A stretch of 32,000 bases of DNA from Micrococcus luteus NCTC 2665 (GCF_000023205.1 NC_012803.1:90001-122000); one strand, 5' to 3'. Shown: positions 13,778-29,383, counted from the stretch's first letter. Program-made: numbers and translations. The notes: generated from the letters alone by a model not told the origin.

Positions 13778-14869
13778 TCAGCGCGCGCGGTCGAACGGGG
13801 CCGTCAGCAGGCGGACGACGCCCTCCAGCGGCCCCGCGCGGAACGGGCCGATACGCACGACGGCCCGCCACAGCAGCGGCAGCAGCAGCGCGCCGGCCAC
13901 CAGCACGGCCAGGTTGAACCACGTGTCGTCCGTGCCCGTGGCGCTGCGCCACGGCCCGGGTCCGAGCCCCCGCACCCAGCCGAGGTACCACAGGTGCGCC
14001 ACGTACACGGACAGCGTCATCGCGCCGGGCACGGCCAGCAGCCCGGCCCACCGCGGCGCCAGGGCCGCGCACCCGCCGAGCACGGTCAGCACGAGGCCCG
14101 TGTCCAGCAGGGCCTCCGCGGGGGTCGCCGTGTAGGGCACGGGGGCGGCGCCGGTCTGCGTCCGGGACAGGGCGAGCACGACGCCGGCCAGCGCGATCCC
14201 CCCGGCCGCCCAGGCGAGCCCCGTGAGCCGTGCGCGCCGGGCCGGGGCCGCCGTCGTCGTGCCGTGGACGGTGGCGACCAGCACCGCCCCCAGCAGCGCC
14301 CACGCGAGGAACAGGGGGAGACGGTACGGGCCGTCCGTGAGGAACGCGGAGACCCACGGGGTCAGCGTCGCGCGGCTCAGCCCGAGCGCCTGCGCGGCGG
14401 GGAGGAGCCGGTCGACGACGTCGGCCGTCGGTGTGGCGGCGAGCAGGAGGCCGCCTCCGCCGGCCAGGACGGCGAGCACGAGGTGCGCGGCGAGGGGGAG
14501 GGCGGCCAGCAGCGCCATGATCACTGTGAGCACAGCCAGGTGCGCCAGCACGTTCACGACGGCCGCCCCGAAGAGCCCGGTCAGCCACGCCGCCCCGCAC
14601 AGGGCGGCCGCCCGCACAAGCGCGCGGGGCACGGCCCGGCCACGGCCCAGCCACTCCGCCTCGAGGCGCGCGCCCACGCCCACGAGCGCCGCGAACAGGG
14701 GCGCGGTGAGGTGCTCGGAGAGGTGGAGCACCCCACCCGGGCCGCCGGCGGGCGCCGTGTGGGCGACCATCATCGCGACCAGGGCCAGGCCGCGCGCGAC
14801 GTCCACCCAGACCAGGCGGCCCCGGGCGGTGTGGGTGGCGGCGGGAGCGTGGGAGGAGGGGGCGGGCAC
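13778..14869 (-). CDS. Polytopic membrane protein, acyltransferase-3 / DUF1624-like
   Basis: RLVWVDVARGLALVAMMVAH is the characteristic N-terminal motif of heparan-alpha-glucosaminide N-acetyltransferase-like and acyltransferase-3 membrane proteins. About 9-10 hydrophobic helices are predicted by eye. The GTG start has a GGAGG SD 5 nt upstream (complement of 14875-14879). Confidence 0.55.
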   Translation of the reverse strand: MPAPSSHAPAATHTARGRLVWVDVARGLALVAMMVAHTAPAGGPGGVLHLSEHLTAPLFAALVGVGARLEAEWLGRGRAVPRALVRAAALCGAAWLTGLFGAAVVNVLAHLAVLTVIMALLAALPLAAHLVLAVLAGGGGLLLAATPTADVVDRLLPAAQALGLSRATLTPWVSAFLTDGPYRLPLFLAWALLGAVLVATVHGTTTAAPARRARLTGLAWAAGGIALAGVVLALSRTQTGAAPVPYTATPAEALLDTGLVLTVLGGCAALAPRWAGLLAVPGAMTLSVYVAHLWYLGWVRGLGPGPWRSATGTDDTWFNLAVLVAGALLLPLLWRAVVRIGPFRAGPLEGVVRLLTAPFDRAR

Positions 14870-16494: not shown

Positions 16495-17568
16495 TCAGAC
16501 GGCGGGGACGAGTTCGGCGCGCAGCGCCGCCGTGAACGCGTCCACGTCCTCCTCGGTCGTGTCGAAGCCGCACACCCAGCGCACCTCGCGGCGCGCCGCG
16601 TCCCAGTCGTAGAACCGGAAGCGGGCGCGCAGCCGGTCGGCCACGCCCTCGGGCAGGACGGCGAACACGGCGTTGGCGTCCGTGGCCTGTGTGAACTCGA
16701 CGCCGGCCAGCGAGCCGTCGGCGACCCCCGCCTCGATGCCGGCGCGCAGCCGGGCGGCCATGGCGTTGGCGTGGCGGGCGGAGCGCAGGTACAGGTCGCC
16801 GTCGAACAGCGCGAGCAGCTGCGCCGAGACGAAGCGCATCTTCGAGGCCAGCTGCATCTGGTTCTTGCGCAGGTACACGAGGCCGTCCGCGGCGTCCGGG
16901 TCGAGCACGACGACGGCCTCGGCCAGCAGCGCCCCGTTCTTGGTGCCGCCGAGGGAGAGCACGTCCACGCCGACGTCGGTGGTGAAGGCGCGCAGCGGCA
17001 GGCCCAGGGAGGCCGCGGCATTGGCGATGCGGGCGCCGTCCAGGTAGACGCGCATCCCGTGCTCGTGGGCGTAGTCCGTGATGGCCTTGACCTCGTCCGG
17101 GGTGTAGACCGTGCCGAGCTCGGTGGACTGGGTGAGGTAGACGACCAGGGGCTGGGCGCGGTGCTCGTCACCCCAGCCCCACGCCTCGGCGGCGATCAGC
17201 TCGGGGGTGAGCTTGCCGTCGTCGGTGGCCACGGGCAGCAGCTTGATGCCGGCGGACTTCTCCGGCGCGCCGCCCTCGTCCACATGGATGTGCGCGGTGT
17301 CCGCGCAGATCACCGCGCCCCAGCGGGGCAGCATGGCCTGGAGCCCGACGACGTTCGCCCCGGTGCCGTTGAACATCGGCCACACGGTGGCGTCCTCGCC
17401 GAAGTGCTGGGCCACGACCTCCTGGAGGCGGGCCGTGTACACGTCCTCGCCGTAGGCGACCTGGTGGCCCCCGTTGGCCTCGGCGATCGCCGCGAGCACC
17501 TCCGGGTGGACGCCGGAGTAGTTGTCCGAGGCGAAGCCCCGCTCCTGCGGATCGTGGATCCTCTGCAT
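16495..17568 (-). CDS. ltaE: Low-specificity L-threonine aldolase (PLP-dependent)
   Basis: GFASDNYSGVHPEVLAAI at the N-terminus and the PLP-lysine motif LSLGGTKNG are typical of threonine aldolases. The length is ~357 aa. Confidence 0.85.
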   Translation of the reverse strand: MQRIHDPQERGFASDNYSGVHPEVLAAIAEANGGHQVAYGEDVYTARLQEVVAQHFGEDATVWPMFNGTGANVVGLQAMLPRWGAVICADTAHIHVDEGGAPEKSAGIKLLPVATDDGKLTPELIAAEAWGWGDEHRAQPLVVYLTQSTELGTVYTPDEVKAITDYAHEHGMRVYLDGARIANAAASLGLPLRAFTTDVGVDVLSLGGTKNGALLAEAVVVLDPDAADGLVYLRKNQMQLASKMRFVSAQLLALFDGDLYLRSARHANAMAARLRAGIEAGVADGSLAGVEFTQATDANAVFAVLPEGVADRLRARFRFYDWDAARREVRWVCGFDTTEEDVDAFTAALRAELVPAV

Positions 17569-17573
17569 GTCAG

Positions 17574-18248
17574 TTACGTTCCCTTCTCCTGGAGCGTGAG
17601 GACGGCGTCGTTCAGCGCGCCCGCCTCAGCCTCCCACAGTCGCGCGTACTCCTCGGCCAGCCGTTCCTCGAGCCCGGCGAGGGACTTCAGACGGAACACG
17701 ACGGCCGCCGAGCGCAGCGGGGTCTCTGCGTCCCGGGCGGCCTTGGCCCAGCCCTGCGCCACCGCGCGGGTCCATGCCTCGCTCGCCGCCTTCACCGCGG
17801 CGTAGTTCGCGCCGCCGGCGAGCGGCCGGGCCACCGCCGTGGACGAGGCGATCGCGAGGCGACCGGCGGACGAGTCCCGCAGGTCGTCGTCGAGGGCCCG
17901 GCTCACGTGCCGCAGCGCCGTGAACGAGGCCTCCAGGGCGCGGTAGTCCGCCTCGGTCTGACCGGCGAGGCCCCCGCCGCCGCGCCAGCCGCCCACCAGG
18001 TGGAGCAGGCCGTCGATCCGGGTGCCGCGGGCGTGCAGGTCCTCCACGAGGCCGCGGACGGCGGACTCCTCCGTGAGGTCCAGGGTCGCGGTCTCGGCGC
18101 CGAGGCCGGCGAGGGGGGCGAGCTTCGCGGCGTCGCGCCCGGTCGCGACGACGTGCGCGCCGGCGTCGAGGAGCGTGCGGGCGGCGGCCCGGCCCGAGTC
18201 GCTCGTGGCGCCCGCGATCAGGACGGCGCGGTCGGTCAGGGCGGCCAC
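17574..18248 (-). CDS. Short-chain dehydrogenase/reductase (SDR)
   Basis: The glycine-rich cofactor motif IAGATSDSG is present. So is the catalytic YAAVKAA (YxxxK). Only 5 nt separate its stop codon from the ltaE start. Confidence 0.8.
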   Translation of the reverse strand: MAALTDRAVLIAGATSDSGRAAARTLLDAGAHVVATGRDAAKLAPLAGLGAETATLDLTEESAVRGLVEDLHARGTRIDGLLHLVGGWRGGGGLAGQTEADYRALEASFTALRHVSRALDDDLRDSSAGRLAIASSTAVARPLAGGANYAAVKAASEAWTRAVAQGWAKAARDAETPLRSAAVVFRLKSLAGLEERLAEEYARLWEAEAGALNDAVLTLQEKGT

Positions 18249-18251
18249 GGG

Positions 18252-19682
18252 TCAGGCGTCCGTGCCGCGGATCCCGGCGGTGGACTCGATGACGCCGCGC
18301 ATCTTCTTCTCGAGGGCCTCGAAGAACATGGACAGCGGGAACTCGTCGTCGAGCACGAGGTCGGTGTAGCCCTTGGGCGGGCCGGCGAGGACCTCACGGG
18401 GCAGGCCCTGCGCCCACACGGAGGCGGGGTGCGGGGTGACCACGGAGGCGACGAGCTCGTAGGCCTTGAGCCAGTGCACGGTCTTGGGGCGGTCGATGGA
18501 CTCCCAGTAGAGCGTGTCGATGGCGTCGCCCAGCTCGACGACGGCGTCGGCGAGCCGGTCCCAGTCCACGCTGAGCTCGACGTCGCGCCACTGGATCACG
18601 TCCTTGCGGTGCAGCCAGGCGAAGAGCAGCTGGCCGCCGAGGCCGTCGTAGTTGCGGACGCGGGAGCCGGTGAGGGCGAAGCGGAAGACGCGGTCGAAGA
18701 GGACGGCGTGCTGCACGAGCCCGGCGTGGCGGCGGGTCTGCTCCTCGAGCCCGGTGAGCTGCTCGCCGGCGGCGGCGCGCGCCGTGAGGCGGCGCTCGAT
18801 CGCCACGCACTCGCGGAAGGCGGTCATGTCGCAGCGCATCTCCTCGAGCGTGTAGAGGAAGAAGGGCATGCGCTGCTTGATCATGAACGGGTCGAAGGGC
18901 AGGTCGCCGCGCATGTGCGTGCGGTCGTGGATGAGGTCCCACATCACGAAGGTGCCCTCGGCGAGCTCCTGGCTGGAGAGCAGTTCGGCGAGCTCGGCCG
19001 GGAGCTCGAGCTGGGTGACCTCGGCGGCGGCGGTGACGACCCGGCGGAAGCGGGCGGCCTCGCGGTCCTGGAAGATGGCGCCCCACGTGAAGGTGGGGAT
19101 CTCGCGCATGGCCACGGTCTCGGGGAAGAGGACGGCCGAGTTCGTGTCGTAGCCGGGGGTGAAATCGATCAGGCGCAGGGAGACGAAGAGGCGGTTGCCG
19201 TAGTCGCCGGCCTCGAGCTCGGCGATGAACTCGGGCCAGATGGTCTCGACGACGAGGGCCTCCACGTGCCGGTCCGGGGAGCCGTTCTGCGTGTACATCG
19301 GGAAGACCACGAGGTGCCGGACGCCGTCGACGCGGTGCTCCTGCGGCTGGAAGGCGACGAGGGAGTCCAGGAAGTCGGGCTCGGCGAAGCCGCCGTCGGC
19401 CCAGCGGGCGAAGTCGCGGGGCAGGGCGGCGAGGTAGGCGGCGTCGTGCGGGAAGAGCGGGGCGAGCTCCTCGACGGCGGCGACGATGGTCTCCACGTGC
19501 TCGCGCGCGGCGGCGTGGTCCGCCGGGTCCGGGATGGAGCCGTCCTTGACCTGCAGAGGCTGCAGGGCGGTGGCGGCGGCCTTGAGGCGGAGCCAGGCCG
19601 GGTGGGTCTCGACGGTGCGCGCGTCGGCCGGGGCCTCCGAGGCAACGCCGTCGGTCCGGGCGGGCTGCAGAGTGGTGGACAT
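18252..19682 (-). CDS. Conserved hypothetical protein, 476 aa, function unknown (HDxxH...EE motif)
   Basis: ORF 18252..19751 is trimmed to ATG 19682, which is preceded by AGGAAGG. Codon usage matches the neighbouring genes, and no TM segment or signal peptide is evident. Its stop lies 3 nt from the SDR start. I cannot place it in a named enzyme family from sequence alone. Confidence 0.7.
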   Translation of the reverse strand: MSTTLQPARTDGVASEAPADARTVETHPAWLRLKAAATALQPLQVKDGSIPDPADHAAAREHVETIVAAVEELAPLFPHDAAYLAALPRDFARWADGGFAEPDFLDSLVAFQPQEHRVDGVRHLVVFPMYTQNGSPDRHVEALVVETIWPEFIAELEAGDYGNRLFVSLRLIDFTPGYDTNSAVLFPETVAMREIPTFTWGAIFQDREAARFRRVVTAAAEVTQLELPAELAELLSSQELAEGTFVMWDLIHDRTHMRGDLPFDPFMIKQRMPFFLYTLEEMRCDMTAFRECVAIERRLTARAAAGEQLTGLEEQTRRHAGLVQHAVLFDRVFRFALTGSRVRNYDGLGGQLLFAWLHRKDVIQWRDVELSVDWDRLADAVVELGDAIDTLYWESIDRPKTVHWLKAYELVASVVTPHPASVWAQGLPREVLAGPPKGYTDLVLDDEFPLSMFFEALEKKMRGVIESTAGIRGTDA

Positions 19683-19752
19683 GGAACCTTCCTGAGGTCG
19701 AAGCGCCGGAAAATATCCGGTGAGGCGGATCACTGGCCGGAAGGTTTCCATG
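19680..19752. promoter_or_regulatory. Nested dyad in the Lrp / unknown-operon divergent intergenic region (candidate operator or RBS-sequestering structure)
   Basis: The outer arms are CATGGAACCTTCC (19680-19692) and GGAAGGTTTCCATG (19739-19752). The central palindrome is CCGGAAAATATCCGG (19706-19720). On the minus strand the centre contains TATTTT, a possible -10 element. Confidence 0.4.
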
Positions 19753-20395: not shown

Positions 20396-21235
20396 GTGCG
20401 TCCGACCTCGCCCCGTCCTGCCCCCGCCTACCTCACCGACTCCGTTCCCGCCCGTCGCGGCCACCCGCTGGGGTTCGCGCACCGGGGCGCCGCCGTCGAT
20501 CGGGAGAACTCGCTGGCCGCGTTCGTGGACGCCCACGCCGCCGGGTTCACCTACCTCGAGCTGGACGTGCGCACCACGGCGGACGGCGAGCTCCTCGTCT
20601 TCCACGACGACACCCTGGACCGCGTCAGCACCGGCCGCGGCCGGCTGCGCGACCACACGTGGGAGCGACTGGCGGACGTCACGGTCGGCGGGGAGCCGCT
20701 GCTGCGCTTCACGGAACTGCTCACGGCGCTCCCCGAAGCCCGCCTGAACGTGGACCTCAAGGACCGCGCGTCGGCCCCGGCCCTGGCCCGCATCCTCGCC
20801 GAGCACGGCGCCTGGGACCGCGTGCTCGTCGCCTCGTTCCATGACTCGCGGCGCCGCCTCTTCCGGCGCGCCCTCGCCCGCCTCGGCCACCCCGAGCGGG
20901 CGTACGGGCCGGAGCGGGTGGCGACGTCGGGCGGGGCGGCCGCCATCGCGGCCCTCGTGACGCTGGGGCCGCTGGGACTGACCCGCTGGCTGCGCCGGTA
21001 CGCCCTCGACGTCGACTGCGTGCAGGTGCCCGTCCGGCACGGCCGCGTGCCCGTGGCCACCGCCGACTTCGTGCGCCGCTGCCACGCGGCGGGCCTGCCG
21101 GTGCACGTGTGGGTCGTCGACGAGCCCGCGGAGATCGAACGCCTGCTCGACCTCGGCGTCGACGGCGTCATGACCGACCGTGCCGACGTCCTCGCCGAGG
21201 TCTACGCCCGCCGCGGCTTCTGGCCGCAGCGCTGA
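20396..21235 (+). CDS. Glycerophosphodiester phosphodiesterase (GDPD family)
   Basis: GFAHRGA..ENS and YLELDVRTTADGELLVFHDDTLDR are canonical GDPD motifs. GTG 20396 is the first start downstream of the hairpin at 20291-20343. Confidence 0.8.
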   Translation: MRPTSPRPAPAYLTDSVPARRGHPLGFAHRGAAVDRENSLAAFVDAHAAGFTYLELDVRTTADGELLVFHDDTLDRVSTGRGRLRDHTWERLADVTVGGEPLLRFTELLTALPEARLNVDLKDRASAPALARILAEHGAWDRVLVASFHDSRRRLFRRALARLGHPERAYGPERVATSGGAAAIAALVTLGPLGLTRWLRRYALDVDCVQVPVRHGRVPVATADFVRRCHAAGLPVHVWVVDEPAEIERLLDLGVDGVMTDRADVLAEVYARRGFWPQR

Positions 21236-21277
21236 CCCCCGCCCGCCCCCGGCCCGCGGCTCGCGGCCCGCGGCCGA

Positions 21278-21349
21278 CTTTCGAGCGTGAAATCGGGGCT
21301 ATGGGCGCTTTCGAACGTGAGTTAGGCCCCATGTCACGTTCGAAAGCGC
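21278..21349. repeat. Structured intergenic repeat, copy B (two direct units plus one inverted unit)
   Basis: u1 is CTTTCGAGCGTGAAAT (21278-21293). u2 is GCGCTTTCGAACGTGA (21305-21320). u3 is TCACGTTCGAAAGCGC (21334-21349), a perfect 16-bp complement of u2 across a 13-nt loop. The copy lies between the convergent GDPD and ALDH genes. Confidence 0.6.
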
Positions 21350-21390
21350 GGGCCCAGCCGGGCCCGGCCAGCCCCGCCCCCACCCACCCC

Positions 21391-22905
21391 TCAGAGCATC
21401 TTCGGCAGCAGCGCCCGCTTCATCCGCCCGTACGGCGGGTACGCGGTCTTGAGCGTGTCCACCTGGTCCGACTTCGTGATGGACGGGCGCAGGTGGGAGA
21501 ACGTCTCGAAGCCGTGGATGCCGTGGTACGCGCCCATCCCGGACGCGCCGATCCCGCCGAACGGCAGCGTCGCGATGCCGGCGTGCAGCAGGCCGACGTC
21601 GTAGCCGAGGCCGCCGGCCTGCACCTGGTCGTCGAACGCGCGGTGGTAGCTCGGCCGGTCCGTGAACAGGTACGCGGCCAGCGGGTGCGGGCGCTCCGCG
21701 ATGAAGTCCAGGGCGTCCTGGAAGGTGTCCACGGTCAGCACGGGCAGGATCGGGCCGAACAGCTCCTCCTGCATGAGCGCGCCGTCCGGCTTGACGCCCG
21801 TCACCACGGTCGGCGCCATGTACCGCCCCGCCACGTCCACGTCGCCGCCGACGAGCAGCTCGGCGCCGGCGTCGAGGTCCGCCTGAAGCATCTCCCGCAG
21901 CCGCTCCGCGTGCTCGGCGGAGATGAGGCGGCCGTAGTCCTTCGACGCGCGGGGGTCGTCGCCGTAGAACTCGCGCAGGGCTGCGGGGAGCTCGGCGGTC
22001 ACCTGACGCAGCGCGGCCTCGCCGACGGCCAGCACGTAGTCCGGGGCCACGCACGTCTGACCCGCGTTGGTGAACTTCGCCCACGCGATCCGGCGGGCCA
22101 TCGCGCCCGTGTTCCGGGACGGCGTCACCACCGCCGGCGACTTGCCGCCCAGCTCGAGCGTCACGGGGGAGAGGGTCTTCGCCGCCGCCTCGTAGACGAT
22201 CCGGCCCACGCGCTCCCCGCCGGTGTAGAGGATGTGGTCCCACGGCTCCGCCAGCAGCGCGGTGTTGCACTCCTTGCCGCCCGCCACCACGGAGACCAGT
22301 GCGGAGTCCAGGTACTGCGGCACCAGCTCCCGCAGCGCCGCCGCCGTGGCCGGGGCCTTCTCCGACGGGCTGAGCACCACCGTGTTGCCGGCCGCCAGCG
22401 CGCCCACGACCGGGGCGAGCGCGAGCTGCACCGGATAGTTCCACGCGCCGATGACCAGCACGAGACCCTTGGGTCGCGGCCGGACCTCCGCGCTCGCGGG
22501 CCGCAGGGCCAGCGGCAGCTTCACGGGCCGCGGCTCCATCCAGTCGGTCAGGTGCAGCAGCGCGTGGTCCACCTCGGAGCGCACCGAGACGATCTCCGTG
22601 ATCAGCGCCTCGGTGGCCGGCTTGCCCAGGTCCGTGCCGAGCGCCGCGACGAACCGGTCCGCGTGCTCCGTCAGCATCCGCTTCAGGCCCTTGAGCTGGC
22701 GCACCCGCACCGCGCGCGGGTGGGCGGCGCGGGAGCGGGCGGCGGCGCGCAGACGCTCGACGGCGGCCCGCGGCTCCTCGGGTCGGGGCCCGGCCGGCGC
22801 GATCGGCAGGGCCTCGGTGGGCAACGGCTCGCGAACCGGATCGTCGTCGGGGGTGTCGGGGGCGTCGGTGGTCAGACCGGGGGGCTGCGTGCTCATGTCG
22901 GCCAC
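21391..22905 (-). CDS. NAD(P)-dependent aldehyde dehydrogenase (ALDH3-like)
   Basis: LELGGKSP and the catalytic-cysteine motif FTNAGQTCVAPDY are present. The ~500-aa length fits the ALDH family. Confidence 0.9.
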   Translation of the reverse strand: MADMSTQPPGLTTDAPDTPDDDPVREPLPTEALPIAPAGPRPEEPRAAVERLRAAARSRAAHPRAVRVRQLKGLKRMLTEHADRFVAALGTDLGKPATEALITEIVSVRSEVDHALLHLTDWMEPRPVKLPLALRPASAEVRPRPKGLVLVIGAWNYPVQLALAPVVGALAAGNTVVLSPSEKAPATAAALRELVPQYLDSALVSVVAGGKECNTALLAEPWDHILYTGGERVGRIVYEAAAKTLSPVTLELGGKSPAVVTPSRNTGAMARRIAWAKFTNAGQTCVAPDYVLAVGEAALRQVTAELPAALREFYGDDPRASKDYGRLISAEHAERLREMLQADLDAGAELLVGGDVDVAGRYMAPTVVTGVKPDGALMQEELFGPILPVLTVDTFQDALDFIAERPHPLAAYLFTDRPSYHRAFDDQVQAGGLGYDVGLLHAGIATLPFGGIGASGMGAYHGIHGFETFSHLRPSITKSDQVDTLKTAYPPYGRMKRALLPKML

Positions 22906-22971
22906 GCTACCGAGCCGCCCTGTGCGACGGCAGGGCGGGGCGCCGTCGTCGTCCCCCGCGCGACCCGCGCA

Positions 22972-23087
22972 CTTTCGTTCGGAAGAGGGCGCCCCCAGGG
23001 TCTTTTCGTTCGGGAAACGGCGCGCGCGCCCGGCCGTTTCCCGAACGAAAGCGGTGCGACACGCCGCCGTTTCCCGAACGAAAGCGG
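22972..23087. repeat. Variant structured repeat, copy C (two direct plus two inverted units; nested double hairpin)
   Basis: TTTCGTTCGGGAAACGG (23004-23020) is perfectly complementary to CCGTTTCCCGAACGAAA (23034-23050). The 21-mer CCGTTTCCCGAACGAAAGCGG occurs twice (23034-23054 and 23067-23087). CTTTCGTTCGG at 22972-22982 can pair with the distal copy. The element lies between the pgm stop and the ALDH start. Confidence 0.6.
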
Positions 23088-23100
23088 ACGGGGGCGGGTG

Positions 23101-24819
<1,719 letters not shown>

Positions 24820-24886
24820 GTGCCACACCTTGGCACGGGCGGGCGAACGGGGGAAGACGCGTGGCCCAGCGGGACGACGCCGGCGG

Positions 24887-25315
24887 TCACTTCCGGCAGC
24901 CGGCGCACAGCCCCCAGTAGTAGACCTCGGCCTCGTCGACCGCGAAGCCGTGGTCCTCGGGGGCGTCGAGGCACGGTGCGGAGCCGGTGCGGCACGGCAC
25001 GTCCACGACCGTGCCGCAGCCGCGGCACACGAGGTGGTGGTGGTTGTCGCCCGTGCAGATCTCGTAGCGGGCCGGGGAGCCGGCGGGCTGCAGGGAGCGC
25101 ACGAGCCCGGCCTCGGTGAGCGCGTGGAGGCAGTCGTAGACGGCCTGGTGCGAGGTGCCGGGCAGGGCCCGACGGACGGCGGCCAGCACGGTGGACGCGT
25201 CCGCGTGGGGGTGGTCGGCGAGGGCGGTCAGCACCGCGAGGCGGGGCCGGGTCACGCGCAGGCCGACGCCGCGCAGCAGCGTGCGCTCGTCCTCGTCCCG
25301 CGTCGTGGTCTCCAT
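24887..25315 (-). CDS. Fur-family metalloregulator (FurA/PerR-like)
   Basis: The winged-helix N-terminal half is [14 protein letters not shown]. The metal-site region [10 protein letters not shown] and the C-terminal CAGC form CxxC...CxxC. From memory, the C-terminal [11 protein letters not shown] resembles mycobacterial FurA. I prefer ATG 25315 over 25330 because of the promoter geometry. Confidence 0.85.
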
Positions 25316-25323
25316 GCCAGTCG

Positions 25324-25352
25324 ATCCCATCCGGTTCTCTGGAACATGTCAA
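25324..25352 (-). promoter_or_regulatory. Candidate fur promoter (leaderless) within a relatively AT-rich patch
   Basis: On the minus strand, a perfect TTGACA (complement of 25347-25352) is followed by a 17-nt spacer and TGGGAT (complement of 25324-25329). ATG 25315 lies 8 nt further downstream. Confidence 0.35.
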
Positions 25353-25476
25353 GAAAGAGCGGGCCGCTTCGCCCCCGGCGCACCGGCCATTCCCCGCCGT
25401 CCCCGTGCTGACTACGGTGAATCCTCGACCCCGGGGCGCACCGGCCCGGGCGCCGTCGATGAGGAGGTCCCCACCC

Positions 25477-26595
25477 ATGGCCCAGCCCGAGCCCGTCCGT
25501 CTCGTCCCGGGTGGAGCCGTGGACCGCCCGGCCGAGCAGGCCCTCCTCGCGGCCGCCGCGGCCTGCGGCGGCGACGTCGACGCGATGGTCGAGCTGCTCC
25601 GTGCGGCTTCCGGCGCCGCGTCCGGCGAGGCCGCCGCCCCGCTCGACCTGCCGCTGACCGGCGCGGGGCGCACCCGCGAGCAGTGGGAGCTGCTCGCCTC
25701 CGTCGCCGCGCAGGACCTCTCGGCCGCCCGCGTGCTCGAGCCCCATCTGGACGCGCTCTCGATCCTGTCCCAGGCAGGCGTCCCCGCCCCGGCCGGGCTG
25801 CTCGGCGTCTACGCCTCCGAGTCCGGCGGCCGCACCCCCGCCCTGCGCCCCGTCCCGGACGGCCCCGACACCGCCTGGCTGCTCGACGGCGAGAAGCCGT
25901 GGTGTTCGCTCGCGGACCGGTGCGCGGCCGCCGTCGTGACCGGCCGGGAGGCGGACGGCACCCGCCGCGCCGTGCTCGTGGACCTGTCCCACCCCGGCGT
26001 GGCCGAGACCGACTCGGCCTGGCCCGCGCTCGGCCTCGCCCCGATCCGCACGGTGGGCCTGGCCTTCGACGCCGTCCCCGGCAACGCCGTCGGCGGCGCC
26101 GAGTGGTACCTGCGCCGGCCCGGCTTCGCGTGGGGCGGCATCGGCGTGGCGGCGGTGTGGTTCGGCGGCGCCGTCGGCATCGCCCGCACCCTGCGGAACG
26201 CCACCGCCGCCCGCGCGGCCGCCGAGGCCGAGGGCCGCGGACCGGGCCCGGACCAGATCGGCCAGGCCGCGCTCGGCCGCGTCGACCGGCTGCTCCACGC
26301 GATGGCCGCCCTGCTCGCCCGTGCCGCCGACGACGTGGACGCCGGCCGCCTGGACCACGGCCGCGGCATGGTCGAGGCCGACCGGATCCGCGGCACCGTG
26401 GCGCAGCTGTGCACCGAGGTGATGGACGTCGTCGGGCAGGCCACCGGCCCCGGCCCGCTCACCGGCAGCGCCGCGCACGCCCGCGCCGTCGCCGACCTGC
26501 AGGTCTACCTGCGCCAGCACCACGGACACCGCGACGACGCCCGGCTGGGCGCCGCGCTCCTGACCGGCGAGACCGACGGCGGCTGGACGTGGTGA
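25477..26595 (+). CDS. Acyl-CoA dehydrogenase-fold flavoprotein (type-2 / group-D monooxygenase-like)
   Basis: GAGGAGG (25461-25467) lies 9 nt upstream of ATG 25477. The blocks LSAARVLEPHLDALSIL, LLDGEKPWCSLADRC and a C-terminal helical domain are consistent with the ACAD superfamily. The stop TGA 26593-26595 overlaps the next gene's GTG. Confidence 0.7.
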   Translation: MAQPEPVRLVPGGAVDRPAEQALLAAAAACGGDVDAMVELLRAASGAASGEAAAPLDLPLTGAGRTREQWELLASVAAQDLSAARVLEPHLDALSILSQAGVPAPAGLLGVYASESGGRTPALRPVPDGPDTAWLLDGEKPWCSLADRCAAAVVTGREADGTRRAVLVDLSHPGVAETDSAWPALGLAPIRTVGLAFDAVPGNAVGGAEWYLRRPGFAWGGIGVAAVWFGGAVGIARTLRNATAARAAAEAEGRGPGPDQIGQAALGRVDRLLHAMAALLARAADDVDAGRLDHGRGMVEADRIRGTVAQLCTEVMDVVGQATGPGPLTGSAAHARAVADLQVYLRQHHGHRDDARLGAALLTGETDGGWTW

Positions 26596-28715
26596 GCTTC
26601 TCCCACACCGACGACGGCACGTCCGAGGCGGCCTGGGCCGAGGGCGGCGTCGACGAGCTGCCGGAGCTGCGCCTGCCCGTCTGGGACGCGCAGACGCTGC
26701 TGCTCGTGGCCGTGGCGCACCCGGATGACGAGACCCTCGCCGCCACCGGCCTGATCCGCTCCGCCCTGCGCGGCGGGGCACGCGTGCACGTGCTGGTCGC
26801 CACCGCCGGCGAGGCCTCCCACCCGCACTCGCCCACGCACACGCCCGAGGACCTGGTCCGGCTGCGCCGGGACGAGATGGAGCACGCCCTCGACGCCCTC
26901 GCCGCCGGCCTGCCCGCCTCCGCGGGCCCCGGCTCCCCGGCGCGGGACCGGCTGACCTGGGCGTCCCTGGCCCTGCCCGACTCCGGCGTGGCCGAGCACG
27001 AGGACGCCGTGCGCGACGCCGTCGCCGCGGCCCTCGACGCCCACCCCGGCCCCGCCGTGCTCGCCTCCCACGACCCGGGCGACGGCCACGCGGACCACGA
27101 GGCCGTGGGCCGGGCCGTCGGCGCGGTCGCGGGCGAGTGCGACCTGCCGCTCTACGCCTTCCCCATCTGGTTCTGGCACTGGGCCGACCCGGCCGACCTG
27201 CCCGCCCGCCGCTACCGACGGCTGCCGCTCACCGACGACGACCGTGCCGCCCGCCGTGCCGCCCTCGACGCGCACGCCTCCCAGGTCCGGCCCCTCTCCG
27301 CCGCGCCCGGCGACGAGGCGATCCTCGGCCCCGCCGTGCTCGCCCACCACGAGCGCCCGTTCGAGGCCCACCGCGTCTCCGGCCCCGACGACGCCGACGC
27401 CCACCGGGCCGCCGCCGTCTTCGACCGGCTCTACCGGGCCCAGGAGGACCCGTGGCGCTACCTCAGCTCGTCCTACGAGGCCCGCAAGCGGGCGCTCACC
27501 CTCGCCGCCCTGCCCCGGCCCCGCTACGGGACCGTGGTCGAGGCGGGCGCGTCCATCGGCGTGCTCACCGCGGACGTGGCCGCGCGCGCGGACCGCGTGG
27601 TCGGCCTCGAGGCGTCCCCCACCGCCGTCGAGCGCGCCGCCGCCCGGCTGGCCGGCGCGCCGCACGCCGAGGTGCGCCGTGCCGTGCTGCCCGCGGACTG
27701 GCCGGCCGACGTCGCCGGCGCGGACCTCGTGATCGCCTCCGAGATCGGCTACTTCCTGCAGCCCGAGGAGCTCGACGCGCTGATCGACGACGCCGACGCC
27801 GCGCTCGCCCCCGGTGGCGAGCTGCTGCTGTGCCACTGGCGCCACCCCATCGAGGGCTGGCCGCTGGACGGGGACGCCGTGCACGCGCGCGTCGCCGCGG
27901 ACCCGCGCTGGCGGCTGCGCACCGAGCTCGTGGAGGACGACTTCCGGCTCAGCCTCCACGTGCGGGCCGCCGCCGCGACCCACGCCGTCGTCGTGGTGCC
28001 CGCCAAGGACGAACAGGAGCGGCTGCCGGCCGCGCTCGCGGCCCTCGCCGCCGCCCTGGACCGCTGGGAGGAGCACCACGCGCAGGGCACGGCCGCGGTC
28101 GTGGTCGCCGCGGACCGCTGCGACGACGCCACGGTGGCCGCCGCCCTCGAGGCCCGCGCCGCCGACCCGCGCATCCACGTCCTCGAACTGGCGGAGCCGA
28201 CCGCCGGGCAGGCCGGCGTCGGGCGGGCCCGCGTGGAGGGCGCCCGCCGGGCCCGCGCGCTGTTCCCCGACGTGCCCGCCGAGCGCCTCTGGCTCGCCTC
28301 CACCGACGCGGACAGCCGCGTCCCCGCCGACTGGCTGCTGGCGCAGACCGTGGCCGCCGGCCGCGACGAGGCGCTCGTGCTGGGCACGGTGGACGTGCGC
28401 CAGGGGCCGCTGCGGCAGGCCTGGCTCCGCGGCTACCGGCACGAGGAGGGGCACGCGCACGTGCACGGGGCGAACCTGGGGCTGCCGTGGTCGCTGTATG
28501 AGGCCGTGGGCGGGTTCCCGCCGGTGGCCGAGCACGAGGACGTCGGTCTGGCCGAGGCCGTGCGGGCCCTGGCGGGGGAGCGCGACGGCGGTGACGGCCG
28601 CCGGGTGCGCGTGATCGCCACCGACACCACCCGCGTGCTCACCTCGTCCCGCCTGGAGGGGCGGACCCCCGGCGGGTTCTCCGGGTACCTCAAGGCGGTG
28701 GGCCGGCCCGGGTGA
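26592..28715 (+). CDS. Trifunctional fusion protein: PIG-L (LmbE-like) deacetylase + NodS-like SAM methyltransferase + family-2 glycosyltransferase (707 aa)
   Basis: One uninterrupted frame runs from GTG 26592, which overlaps the upstream stop as GTGA. Roughly aa 35-262 carry the PIG-L motifs VAHPDDETL and GHADHEAVG. Roughly aa 272-458 carry EDPWRYLSSSYEARKRAL, VVEAGASIGVLT and GGELLLCHW. Roughly aa 463-700 carry VVVVPAKDEQERL, TDADSRVPADW and VAEHEDVGL. Confidence 0.75.
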   Translation: MSFSHTDDGTSEAAWAEGGVDELPELRLPVWDAQTLLLVAVAHPDDETLAATGLIRSALRGGARVHVLVATAGEASHPHSPTHTPEDLVRLRRDEMEHALDALAAGLPASAGPGSPARDRLTWASLALPDSGVAEHEDAVRDAVAAALDAHPGPAVLASHDPGDGHADHEAVGRAVGAVAGECDLPLYAFPIWFWHWADPADLPARRYRRLPLTDDDRAARRAALDAHASQVRPLSAAPGDEAILGPAVLAHHERPFEAHRVSGPDDADAHRAAAVFDRLYRAQEDPWRYLSSSYEARKRALTLAALPRPRYGTVVEAGASIGVLTADVAARADRVVGLEASPTAVERAAARLAGAPHAEVRRAVLPADWPADVAGADLVIASEIGYFLQPEELDALIDDADAALAPGGELLLCHWRHPIEGWPLDGDAVHARVAADPRWRLRTELVEDDFRLSLHVRAAAATHAVVVVPAKDEQERLPAALAALAAALDRWEEHHAQGTAAVVVAADRCDDATVAAALEARAADPRIHVLELAEPTAGQAGVGRARVEGARRARALFPDVPAERLWLASTDADSRVPADWLLAQTVAAGRDEALVLGTVDVRQGPLRQAWLRGYRHEEGHAHVHGANLGLPWSLYEAVGGFPPVAEHEDVGLAEAVRALAGERDGGDGRRVRVIATDTTRVLTSSRLEGRTPGGFSGYLKAVGRPG

Positions 28716-28813
28716 GGCCGGCCGGGGAGCAGGGGCGCAGGGCCGGGCCGGGTCCGGGGGGCACCGCCTAGACTCGGCACCGGACCGCGACGCCCCGAAC
28801 CGGAAGGACCGTC

Positions 28814-29383
28814 ATGACCGACCCCCACGCCTCCCACGACCCGCGCCGTGAGGCCGCCCGGCCGAGCTGGTACGGGTCCGAGGCCGGTGCGGGCTCCTCC
28901 GGCACCGGCTCCTCCGCCGCCGGCTGGCCCGACGCCCCGGCCGGCGACGCCGACCGCGCCGCCTGGGACCGGGCCCCCTCGTACGCCGAGCAGGAGGGGC
29001 AGACCCGCCCCGCCTACGGGCAGCCGTACGGCTACGGCCAGGACGCGAACACCGTCCCCGCCTACGGCTACGGGCAGGGCACGCCCGGCCACGGCTTCGG
29101 AGCCCCGCTGCAGCCCGGCCAGACCGACGGCGTCGGCCGCTCGGTGGCGTCCATGATCCTCGGCATCATCTCCGTGGTGGGCGGGTTCACGTTCCTCCTC
29201 CCGCCGATCGTGGGCGTGGTCCTCGGCCACATCGGCCTCAAGCGCGAGCCCCACGGCCGCGGCATGGCGATCGCCGGCCTCGTGATGAACTACGTGTCCC
29301 TCGCCCTGCTGCTGCTCGCCGTCGTGTTCCTCGTGATCCTGGTGATCGCCGGGATCTCCCTGGGCGACTACACCTCGACCTGA
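28814..29383 (+). CDS. DUF4190-type small membrane protein with a Pro/Gly/Tyr-rich N-terminal region
   Basis: The SD GGAAGGA lies upstream of ATG 28814, and a TAGACT -10-like hexamer lies at 28769-28774. The C-terminal half SMILGIISVVGG..GVVLGHIGL..GLVMNYVSLALLLL is typical of DUF4190 proteins with two TM segments. Confidence 0.7.
   Translation: MTDPHASHDPRREAARPSWYGSEAGAGSSGTGSSAAGWPDAPAGDADRAAWDRAPSYAEQEGQTRPAYGQPYGYGQDANTVPAYGYGQGTPGHGFGAPLQPGQTDGVGRSVASMILGIISVVGGFTFLLPPIVGVVLGHIGLKREPHGRGMAIAGLVMNYVSLALLLLAVVFLVILVIAGISLGDYTST

Follow-up and report, generated by a model that had tools for sequence, protein, structure and literature searches.

Two overlapping genes encoding four enzymes

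A stretch of 32,000 nucleotides from the genome of Micrococcus luteus NCTC 2665 (GCF_000023205.1, NC_012803.1:90001-122000), hereafter the window, was analyzed, with positions counted from its first nucleotide. Two overlapping genes could be identified on the forward strand between 25477 and 28715. The first open reading frame (ORF A) encodes an acyl-CoA dehydrogenase (ACAD)-fold flavoenzyme-like protein, and the second (ORF B) encodes a PIG-L deacetylase, a NodS-family methyltransferase and a family 2 glycosyltransferase (GT2) fused in a single protein. It is near certain that ORF A and ORF B form one operon and that the four enzymes act as one functional unit, referred to below as the cassette. 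The features of the locus are as follows.

25461-25467, forward strand: Shine-Dalgarno sequence GAGGAGG, 9 nt 5' of the ORF A ATG, identified by direct inspection of the sequence
25477-26595, forward strand: ORF A, 372 aa, ATG start, ACAD-fold flavoenzyme-like protein, first gene of the cassette
25888-25908, forward strand: GEKPWCS motif in ORF A, of the ACAD flavin-site type
26512-26523, forward strand: RQHH in ORF A, apparently at the place where classical ACADs carry YEGT (ungapped motif alignment)
26592-26595, forward strand: GTGA overlap, in which the GTG start of ORF B overlaps the TGA stop of ORF A
26592-28715, forward strand: ORF B, 707 aa, GTG start, PIG-L, NodS-family methyltransferase and GT2 fused
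26592-27401, forward strand: PIG-L/LmbE zinc deacetylase domain (PF02585; 80.6 bits against a cut-off of 28.2, residues 38-178)
26715-26735, forward strand: AHPDDET motif of the PIG-L domain
27087-27107, forward strand: HADHEAV motif of the PIG-L domain
27402-27971, forward strand: NodS-family class I S-adenosylmethionine (SAM) methyltransferase domain (Pfam NodS 26.8 bits against 24, residues 283-417; Methyltransf_25 35.5 bits against 27)
27447-27455, forward strand: DPW motif of the methyltransferase domain
27534-27569, forward strand: SAM motif I, VVEAGASIGVLT
27972-28712, forward strand: small soluble GT-A/GT2 glycosyltransferase domain (Pfam Glycos_transf_2, 36.3 bits against 23.3, residues 467-613)
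27987-28025, forward strand: GT2 motif VVVVPAKDEQERL
28302-28313, forward strand: DxD motif of the GT2 domain, as TDAD
28530-28541, forward strand: EHED motif of the GT2 domain

The original prediction had described a 372-aa ACAD-fold coding sequence coupled to a 707-aa reading frame carrying intact PIG-L, methyltransferase and GT2 motifs. Both reading frames, their overlap and every quoted motif could be verified at the coordinates above, and the profile and fold searches recovered the three domains of ORF B as well as the ACAD fold. The strong Shine-Dalgarno sequence announced in front of ORF A was also present, one base away from the position that had been implied. The GTGA overlap suggests translational coupling of the two genes, and the cassette genes of relatives overlap in a similar way, by 4-7 nt.

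Both gene models were consistent with independently called public proteins. ORF A matched a 372-aa protein with 99% identity (cluster P0121, 526 members), while ORF B matched a 708-aa protein with 98% identity (cluster P0001, 1106 members). The N-terminus of ORF B (MSFSHTDDGT...) could be aligned with those of its homologues, in support of the GTG start, and no stop codon lies between the domains. The NCBIfam equivalog models fitted no ORF B domain, with scores of 32.8 against 300 bits for NodS, 24.8 against 379 for HpnB and 22 against 224 for MshB. The named relatives of the window proteins were from Micrococcus species, with 82-86% identity in M. endophyticus. The G+C content of the window was about 70-80%, and two further stop-free reading frames, at 21109-25119 on the forward strand (1336 aa) and 26505-28535 on the reverse strand (676 aa), lie antisense or out of frame to real genes and are artefacts of the high G+C content.

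Conservation and distribution of the cassette

A diverse ACAD-like profile was obtained from a library-wide search, which yielded 1346 representatives at E ≤0.001 and 201 clusters (50% identity) at ≤1e-30. Scanning this profile alone over one genome per species revealed at least 562 stretches with a relative. The best 80 of these stretches, all from Actinomycetota, were taken as loci, and the domains were located in them by tblastn with the domains of the window. All four domains were present in 73 of the 80 loci, and in 69 they were collinear, on one strand and within 4 kb. Among the other states, two loci were cut by contig ends, four were rearranged and five were without a detectable part.

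The way in which the domains are joined varied between lineages. The triple fusion of PIG-L, methyltransferase and GT2 was found in 28 clusters, of which the named ones belonged to Micrococcus or Citricoccus, and the fusion of PIG-L with the methyltransferase occurred in most Actinomycetota. Arthrobacter and Kocuria carry three overlapping genes, with the ACAD-like gene followed by the PIG-L and methyltransferase fusion and then by the GT2. In Clavibacter, the ACAD-like, PIG-L and methyltransferase parts form one 871-aa protein, which is followed by the GT2. Streptomyces rimosus has four separate genes in unchanged order.

The cassette could also be found in other phyla, often on plasmids. A protein search of a plasmid collection revealed PIG-L and methyltransferase pairs in 44 plasmid records from at least 14 genera. 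Acinetobacter plasmids carry four separate genes in unchanged order, and a Legionella lytica plasmid (locus L089, 1633-8487) carries PIG-L, methyltransferase and GT2 genes followed by a divergent ACAD-like gene annotated as hypothetical. The ACAD-like, PIG-L and methyltransferase genes occur together in Pandoraea and Roseomonas, where no GT2 was annotated, and the GT2 is on the opposite strand in Bradyrhizobium and Deinococcus radiophilus. In D. radiodurans (L087, 178-6582), the cassette is interrupted by a DEAD/DEAH helicase gene of opposite orientation, and its vicinity contains no GT2. The Deinococcus ACAD-like proteins (L087, L005) are 749-779 aa long and are extended at the N-terminus by about 400 aa. 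The possibility that this extension represents a second ACAD copy was considered and ruled out, and it had no Pfam match either.

A further variant was found on a Rubrobacter indicoceani plasmid (L096, 4945-9596), with a NodB-type polysaccharide deacetylase, the ACAD-like protein, the NodS-family methyltransferase, a Pyr_redox_2 flavoprotein reductase and a GT-A glycosyltransferase. The NodB-type deacetylase replaces PIG-L in this cassette. A PRC and DUF2382 stress protein gene lies upstream of the variant, and the gene for a 546-aa protein without a Pfam match lies downstream. Fusions that vary with lineage, in three combinations, and the substitution of one step by a non-orthologous enzyme are typical of proteins that share one pathway.

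Taken over all loci, the cassette is spread across Actinomycetota, Pseudomonadota, Deinococcota and probably Cyanobacteria, is unchanged in monoderm and diderm bacteria, and retains invariant catalytic residues across phyla in the PIG-L, methyltransferase and GT2 domains. Co-occurrence of the four domains beyond M. luteus NCTC 2665 was thereby borne out, and what had been presented as a feature of this genome is instead a widespread mobile cassette of which only the triple fusion is lineage-specific. The original prediction had regarded the combination as uncharacterised, and no homologue was found with a pathway-specific name or an NCBIfam equivalog; the source names were confined to the generic "acyl-CoA dehydrogenase family protein", "PIG-L family deacetylase", "SAM-dependent methyltransferase" and "glycosyltransferase".

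Enzyme functions and a candidate amino-sugar pathway

We propose, with a probability of roughly 40%, that the cassette encodes a soluble four-step pathway leading to a low-molecular-weight modified amino-sugar glycoside. The GT2 would use a nucleotide sugar to attach an N-acetyl-hexosamine (HexNAc) to a small acceptor in the cytoplasm, and the PIG-L domain would strip the N-acetyl group from the resulting HexNAc glycoside. The methyltransferase would then N-methylate the freed amine. Finally, the flavoenzyme would oxidise the product, either at the amine, in the manner of nitrososynthases or DszC with reduced flavin and O2, or elsewhere. The hexosamine-tailoring interpretation of the original prediction is partly supported by the present analysis; we infer its chemistry, that is the identity of the sugar, the acceptor, the order of the steps and the reaction of the flavoenzyme, as well as the role in stress discussed below.

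Deacetylation of an acetylated sugar is the best-supported step, given the invariant PIG-L residues, the nearest solved PIG-L relatives and the Rubrobacter cassette, whose NodB-type enzyme in place of PIG-L indicates that removal of an acetyl group from a sugar is conserved. The closest solved relatives were TT1542, diacetylchitobiose deacetylase, BshB1 and MshB, all of which de-N-acetylate N-acetylglucosamine (GlcNAc) glycosides. Residues H43, D45, D46, E47, H166, D168 and H169 were invariant in 24 sequences from four phyla, and D164 was likewise invariant across phyla. The HxDD(E) and HxDH residues are retained from Micrococcus to Acinetobacter and Legionella.

The PIG-L profile also matched the teicoplanin deacetylases, the Dbv21 deacetylase and LnmX, with a weak NCBIfam match to Mca. 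These matches would suit a cassette that processes or detoxifies an existing or imported GlcNAc compound, such as an antibiotic, a fragment of the cell wall or a thiol conjugate, with PIG-L serving as a deacetylase or amidase in the manner of Mca or the teicoplanin enzymes and with the GT2 and methyltransferase as inactivating or tagging enzymes. The location of the Acinetobacter and Pandoraea copies on plasmids, beside insertion sequence elements and toxin-antitoxin genes, points in the same direction. However, the cassette occupies a stable syntenic chromosomal site across Micrococcus and Citricoccus, its proteins form clusters with hundreds of members, and neither an efflux gene nor a regulator gene is a conserved neighbor. 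A tightly coupled set of four enzymes in fixed order also resembles a pathway more than a resistance gene, and a detoxifying role is considered decidedly unlikely.

In the proposed biosynthetic pathway, PIG-L would act after a glycosyltransferase, as it does in several known systems. Mycothiol and bacillithiol synthesis (MshA/MshB, BshA/BshB) and the glycosylphosphatidylinositol (GPI) enzymes PIG-A/PIG-L likewise pair a glycosyltransferase with a PIG-L/LmbE zinc de-N-acetylase having intact HxDD/HxDH motifs. The glycosyltransferases of those systems are retaining GT4 enzymes, whereas that of the cassette is an inverting GT-A/GT2 enzyme. The cassette is without a cysteine ligase (MshC/BshC) or an acetyltransferase and adds a methyltransferase and a flavoenzyme, and it is also present in phyla that do not make mycothiol.

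The methyltransferase domain is, on its profile scores, a member of the NodS family and not a NodS orthologue. The description of this domain as NodS-type therefore holds at the level of the Pfam family (26.8 against 24 bits) and fails at that of the equivalog (NF041650, 32.8 against 300 bits). The A. baumannii cassette methyltransferase scored 58.5 bits with the NodS Pfam model. Invariant residues were D16, P17, W18, Y25, E26, E47, G53, S113, E114 and Y117, and the N-terminal DPW...YE motif is common to NodS. G49 and C50 were nearly invariant in the family, while the window protein carries A49 and S50. Comparison with the PDB revealed a match to 4ISC at 3e-40 (ORF B residues 295-455) and to NodS (3OFJ) at 4e-7. 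The former value indicates that a solved structure exists for a member of exactly this methyltransferase subfamily. The 4ISC entry was deposited as "Methyltransferase" (164 aa) without a functional name, and no paper citing it was found in the open-access literature. The characterised NodS-family member N-methylates deacetylated glucosamine.

The ACAD fold of ORF A was confirmed at the level of the predicted structure, despite sub-cut-off Pfam scores, by the AlphaFold2 confidence, the Foldseek matches and the family-profile matches to the PDB. The AlphaFold2 model, built on 26 homologues, had a mean predicted local distance difference test (pLDDT) value of 90.7 and a predicted template modeling (pTM) score of 0.92. 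Foldseek comparison of this model with the PDB gave 300 matches at E ≤0.001; the best 50 of the 300 all had the ACAD fold, with template modeling (TM) scores up to 0.71. Among the matches listed, the best were the nitrososynthases ORF36, KijD3 and DnmZ together with DszC (E 4e-12 to 5e-11, TM 0.63-0.71). A profile of the ACAD-like family (54 sequences) matched ACAD-fold PDB chains, the best at 7e-15, and also matched TdsC, KijD3 and DszC. The G138/K140/P141/W142/C143/S144 block was invariant among the 26 homologues, and the GxKPWCS block of the family resembles the ACAD flavin-site motif.

The canonical YEGT motif, which holds the catalytic glutamate, appears to be replaced by RQHH in ORF A. 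The hidden Markov model alignment of the family to the ACAD 2DVL stops at a conserved ...RD, and only its ungapped extension pairs RQHH with YEGT; the glutamate could alternatively sit in helix G. Both the putative loss of YEGT and the top Foldseek matches are features that ORF A would have in common with the group D ACAD-fold flavin monooxygenases (ORF36, KijD3, DnmZ, DszC/TdsC). It differs from them by an identity of only 15-21%, by a shortened N-terminal domain and by having no nucleoside diphosphate-sugar pathway genes nearby. The Pyr_redox_2 gene inserted in the Rubrobacter cassette is of the NAD(P)H-flavin reductase type and is the only hint of a reaction with reduced flavin, O2 and a partner reductase.

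A different use of the same enzymes would be the synthesis of a Nod-factor-like lipo-amino-sugar, in which the ACAD-fold protein is a true acyl-CoA or acyl-acyl carrier protein (ACP) dehydrogenase making an unsaturated chain for a deacetylated, N-methylated glucosamine. TcsD, FkbI and ColB1, which are acyl-ACP/acyl-CoA dehydrogenases, were among the good structural and profile matches of ORF A, and NCBI names some copies "acyl-CoA/acyl-ACP dehydrogenase". Moreover, the GT2, the deacetylase and the NodS-type methyltransferase correspond to NodC, NodB and NodS in the same logical order, the DPW motif is common to both systems, and the deacetylase of the Rubrobacter cassette is of the NodB type too. 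Nevertheless, the cassette contained neither an acyltransferase (NodA-like or other) nor an ACP at any examined locus, and no NodA-, NodB- or NodC-type gene was found in it at those loci apart from the Rubrobacter deacetylase. The GT2 is soluble and about 215-275 aa long across the cassette, whereas NodC-type enzymes are membrane chitin-oligosaccharide synthases. Most lineages use a deacetylase whose fold differs from that of NodB, the ACAD-fold protein is an addition, and the canonical catalytic glutamate motif seems to be absent. A lipo-amino-sugar product is therefore regarded as highly improbable. The cassette belongs to none of the mycothiol, bacillithiol, GPI or Nod-factor pathways.

Several observations weigh against the proposed soluble glycoside pathway. 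ORF A scored under the cut-off on all ACAD Pfam models (Acyl-CoA_dh_M 24.8 against 33.3 bits, Acyl-CoA_dh_1 19.4 against 22.4). It gave no match to the N-terminal ACAD Pfam domain (families tested PF02771, PF02770 and PF00441) or to Acyl-CoA_dh_2 (PF08028), and the SfnB-type model (TIGR04022) gave 18.2 bits against a cut-off of 430.9. True acyl-CoA dehydrogenases fitted the ORF A model equally well (TM 0.68-0.70 compared to 0.63-0.71 for the N-oxygenases). As these scores overlap, the fold alone cannot choose between an oxygenase and a dehydrogenase; the top Foldseek matches support the parallel drawn by the original prediction with flavin N- or S-oxygenases. No flavin reductase was conserved in the cassette outside Rubrobacter. 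The methyltransferase score, far under the NodS equivalog cut-off, does not separate N-methylation from O- or C-methylation. No functional study of the cassette genes was found in the open-access full-text literature. The best solved relatives of the GT2 were generic GT-A enzymes of unrelated specificities (TM about 0.5), so neither the HexNAc donor nor the acceptor can be read from this domain, and its sequence-profile relatives include the polyprenyl-phosphate transferases ArnC, GtrB (sll0501) and DPMS.

The GT2 relatives just named, of which GtrB and ArnC were also listed by Foldseek, raise the alternative of a lipid-carrier envelope modification following the logic of ArnC/ArnD, LgmA/LgmC and FlmF2/NaxD. 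At the membrane face, the GT2 would load HexNAc on undecaprenyl phosphate, the lipid-bound sugar would be deacetylated by PIG-L, and the methyltransferase and flavoenzyme would tailor it before an unlinked flippase and a GT-C enzyme attached it to a wall or outer-membrane polymer. The founding PIG-L enzyme itself uses a lipid-linked GlcNAc, namely N-acetylglucosaminyl-phosphatidylinositol. The ArnC match, however, was limited to profile positions 1-134, the generic nucleotide-binding N-terminal half. No transmembrane or strongly hydrophobic segment was found in any cassette protein tested, and the maximum 19-residue Kyte-Doolittle mean of the GT2-bearing proteins was ≤1.34. The C-terminal transmembrane or interface helices and the full-length match that characterise polyprenyl-phosphate GT2 enzymes were not found in the cassette GT2. 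Furthermore, no transporter, flippase or GT-C gene recurred in the neighborhood of about 90 loci, the cassette does not change between monoderms and diderms, and the GT2 is fused to soluble enzymes in M. luteus. Together, these points make a lipid-carrier route unlikely.

The GT2 domain itself was invariant at E14, D52, D112-A-D114, G166-A-x-L169 and E189-D190, with N168 nearly so, and carried the family-specific signature HGANLG and TSxR...GR. Its AlphaFold2 model had a mean pLDDT of 76, and the Foldseek matches were all GT-A. The structure search was also tried as a guide to the acceptor class and was set aside, having given generic GT-A matches only. Compared to the soluble glycoside pathway, each of the three alternatives is without a required conserved part, being transmembrane helices with a flippase and a GT-C enzyme for the lipid-carrier route, a resistance context for detoxification and an acyltransferase for a lipo-amino-sugar.

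Gene neighborhood and significance of the cassette

Outside Micrococcus and Citricoccus, the cassette has varying neighbors, but these were repeatedly members of general-stress families, which suggests stationary-phase, desiccation or oxidative-stress physiology. In 13 loci, the gene immediately upstream, in the same orientation, codes for Dps. Arthrobacter-type loci have neighbors coding for a YdaD-like short-chain dehydrogenase/reductase, a YqjD/YqjE-like (DUF3618/holin-like) pair and BrkB/YihY, the last of which is again beside the cassette in Roseomonas. Pandoraea neighbors include CsbD, YqjD and a holin-family gene, those in Bradyrhizobium include Ku and LigD, those in D. radiophilus are BON-domain and MscS genes, and a catalase gene is the neighbor in Paraburkholderia. 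In Legionella lytica, the PIG-L gene is immediately preceded, in the same orientation, by otsB (trehalose-phosphatase) and a gene for a GH65 glycoside hydrolase/phosphorylase, and otsA is nearby in Acinetobacter plasmids (locus L004). These otsA, otsB and GH65 neighbors may hint at a disaccharide acceptor or at a shared osmotic and desiccation regulon.

On the A. baumannii chromosome (NZ_CP104448.1, locus L093, 3952-8248), the four genes are immediately followed, in the same orientation, by a BOF/YgiW stress-protein gene and a BLUF blue-light photoreceptor gene, the BlsA orthologue. A published map draws the four genes as blsA neighbors without studying them (PMC9020721). Co-regulation of the cassette with light sensing is possible in this species.

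Judging by these neighbors, the product would be made within stationary-phase, desiccation or oxidative-stress physiology. Two further points count against such a role. The stress association is qualitative and was drawn without a background control, with many of the supporting loci coming from closely related Arthrobacter. In addition, a SigB/SigF-type pattern (GnTT-N13-19-GGGnA) was found upstream of the ACAD-like gene in 9 of 86 loci compared to a 4% background, without clear enrichment; in many loci, other genes precede the ACAD-like gene in its operon.

In Micrococcus and Citricoccus, the cassette lies at a syntenic chromosomal site, where a phosphoglucomutase gene is followed by the cassette and then by DUF4190, amidase, rhodanese and pheA genes. 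Scanning positions 25200-28900 of the window for sigma-70 promoters and intrinsic terminators revealed nothing, as is usual at 77-80% G+C, and the sole inverted repeat of the leader was a 9-nt GC-rich pair. The divergent Fur-family gene (24887-25330, reverse strand) was considered as a regulator and rejected, as it belongs to a furA-katG pair in M. flavus and does not accompany the cassette in Citricoccus or M. terreus. This gene is an orphan furA in M. luteus, directly followed by the phosphoglucomutase gene, while the orthologous position in M. flavus (L090) holds furA-katG. An AT-richer stretch, TTCTCTGGAACATGTCAAGAAAGAG (25335-25359), is located just upstream of furA, and we take it to resemble the mycobacterial FurA box. 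A role in anti-phage defence was also considered and dismissed, PADLOC having returned only a generic methyltransferase match to mad2.

Other observations were made along the loci. In Clavibacter sp. CT19 (L002, 18541-18616), a gene with a Pfam NodA match begins some 7 kb downstream of the cassette, where the locus ends; it may be a coincidence, yet it is of note beside a methyltransferase of the NodS family. Elsewhere in the window, a DUF6421 protein gene (799 bits, nearly full-length match), a short-chain dehydrogenase gene and a beta-eliminating lyase-family gene follow each other on the reverse strand at 16495-19751. An amino-acid permease gene lies further downstream, an AsnC/Lrp regulator gene is divergent, and these genes may form a small catabolic cluster. 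A 341-aa reading frame at 13778-14806 (reverse strand) has a good codon-position G+C bias and no Pfam match.

With four enzymes in fixed order, three fusion types and occurrence in hundreds of species, this is one of the more sharply defined orphan cassettes, and its carriers include the tractable or medically relevant Micrococcus luteus, Acinetobacter baumannii and Deinococcus radiodurans. A more specific and rather doubtful suggestion is that the product is an N-methylated, flavin-oxidised glucosamine glycoside, acquired and retained by bacteria of at least four phyla as a protectant or redox-active metabolite in stationary phase, desiccation or stress by light or oxidation. In Acinetobacter, such a stress metabolite may be wired to the BlsA blue-light response. 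If the link with stress holds, the cassette would provide a new metabolite for the biology of bacterial desiccation and persistence, and if the glycoside is indeed N-methylated and flavin-oxidised, it would join trehalose, mycothiol and bacillithiol as a stress metabolite of a new class.

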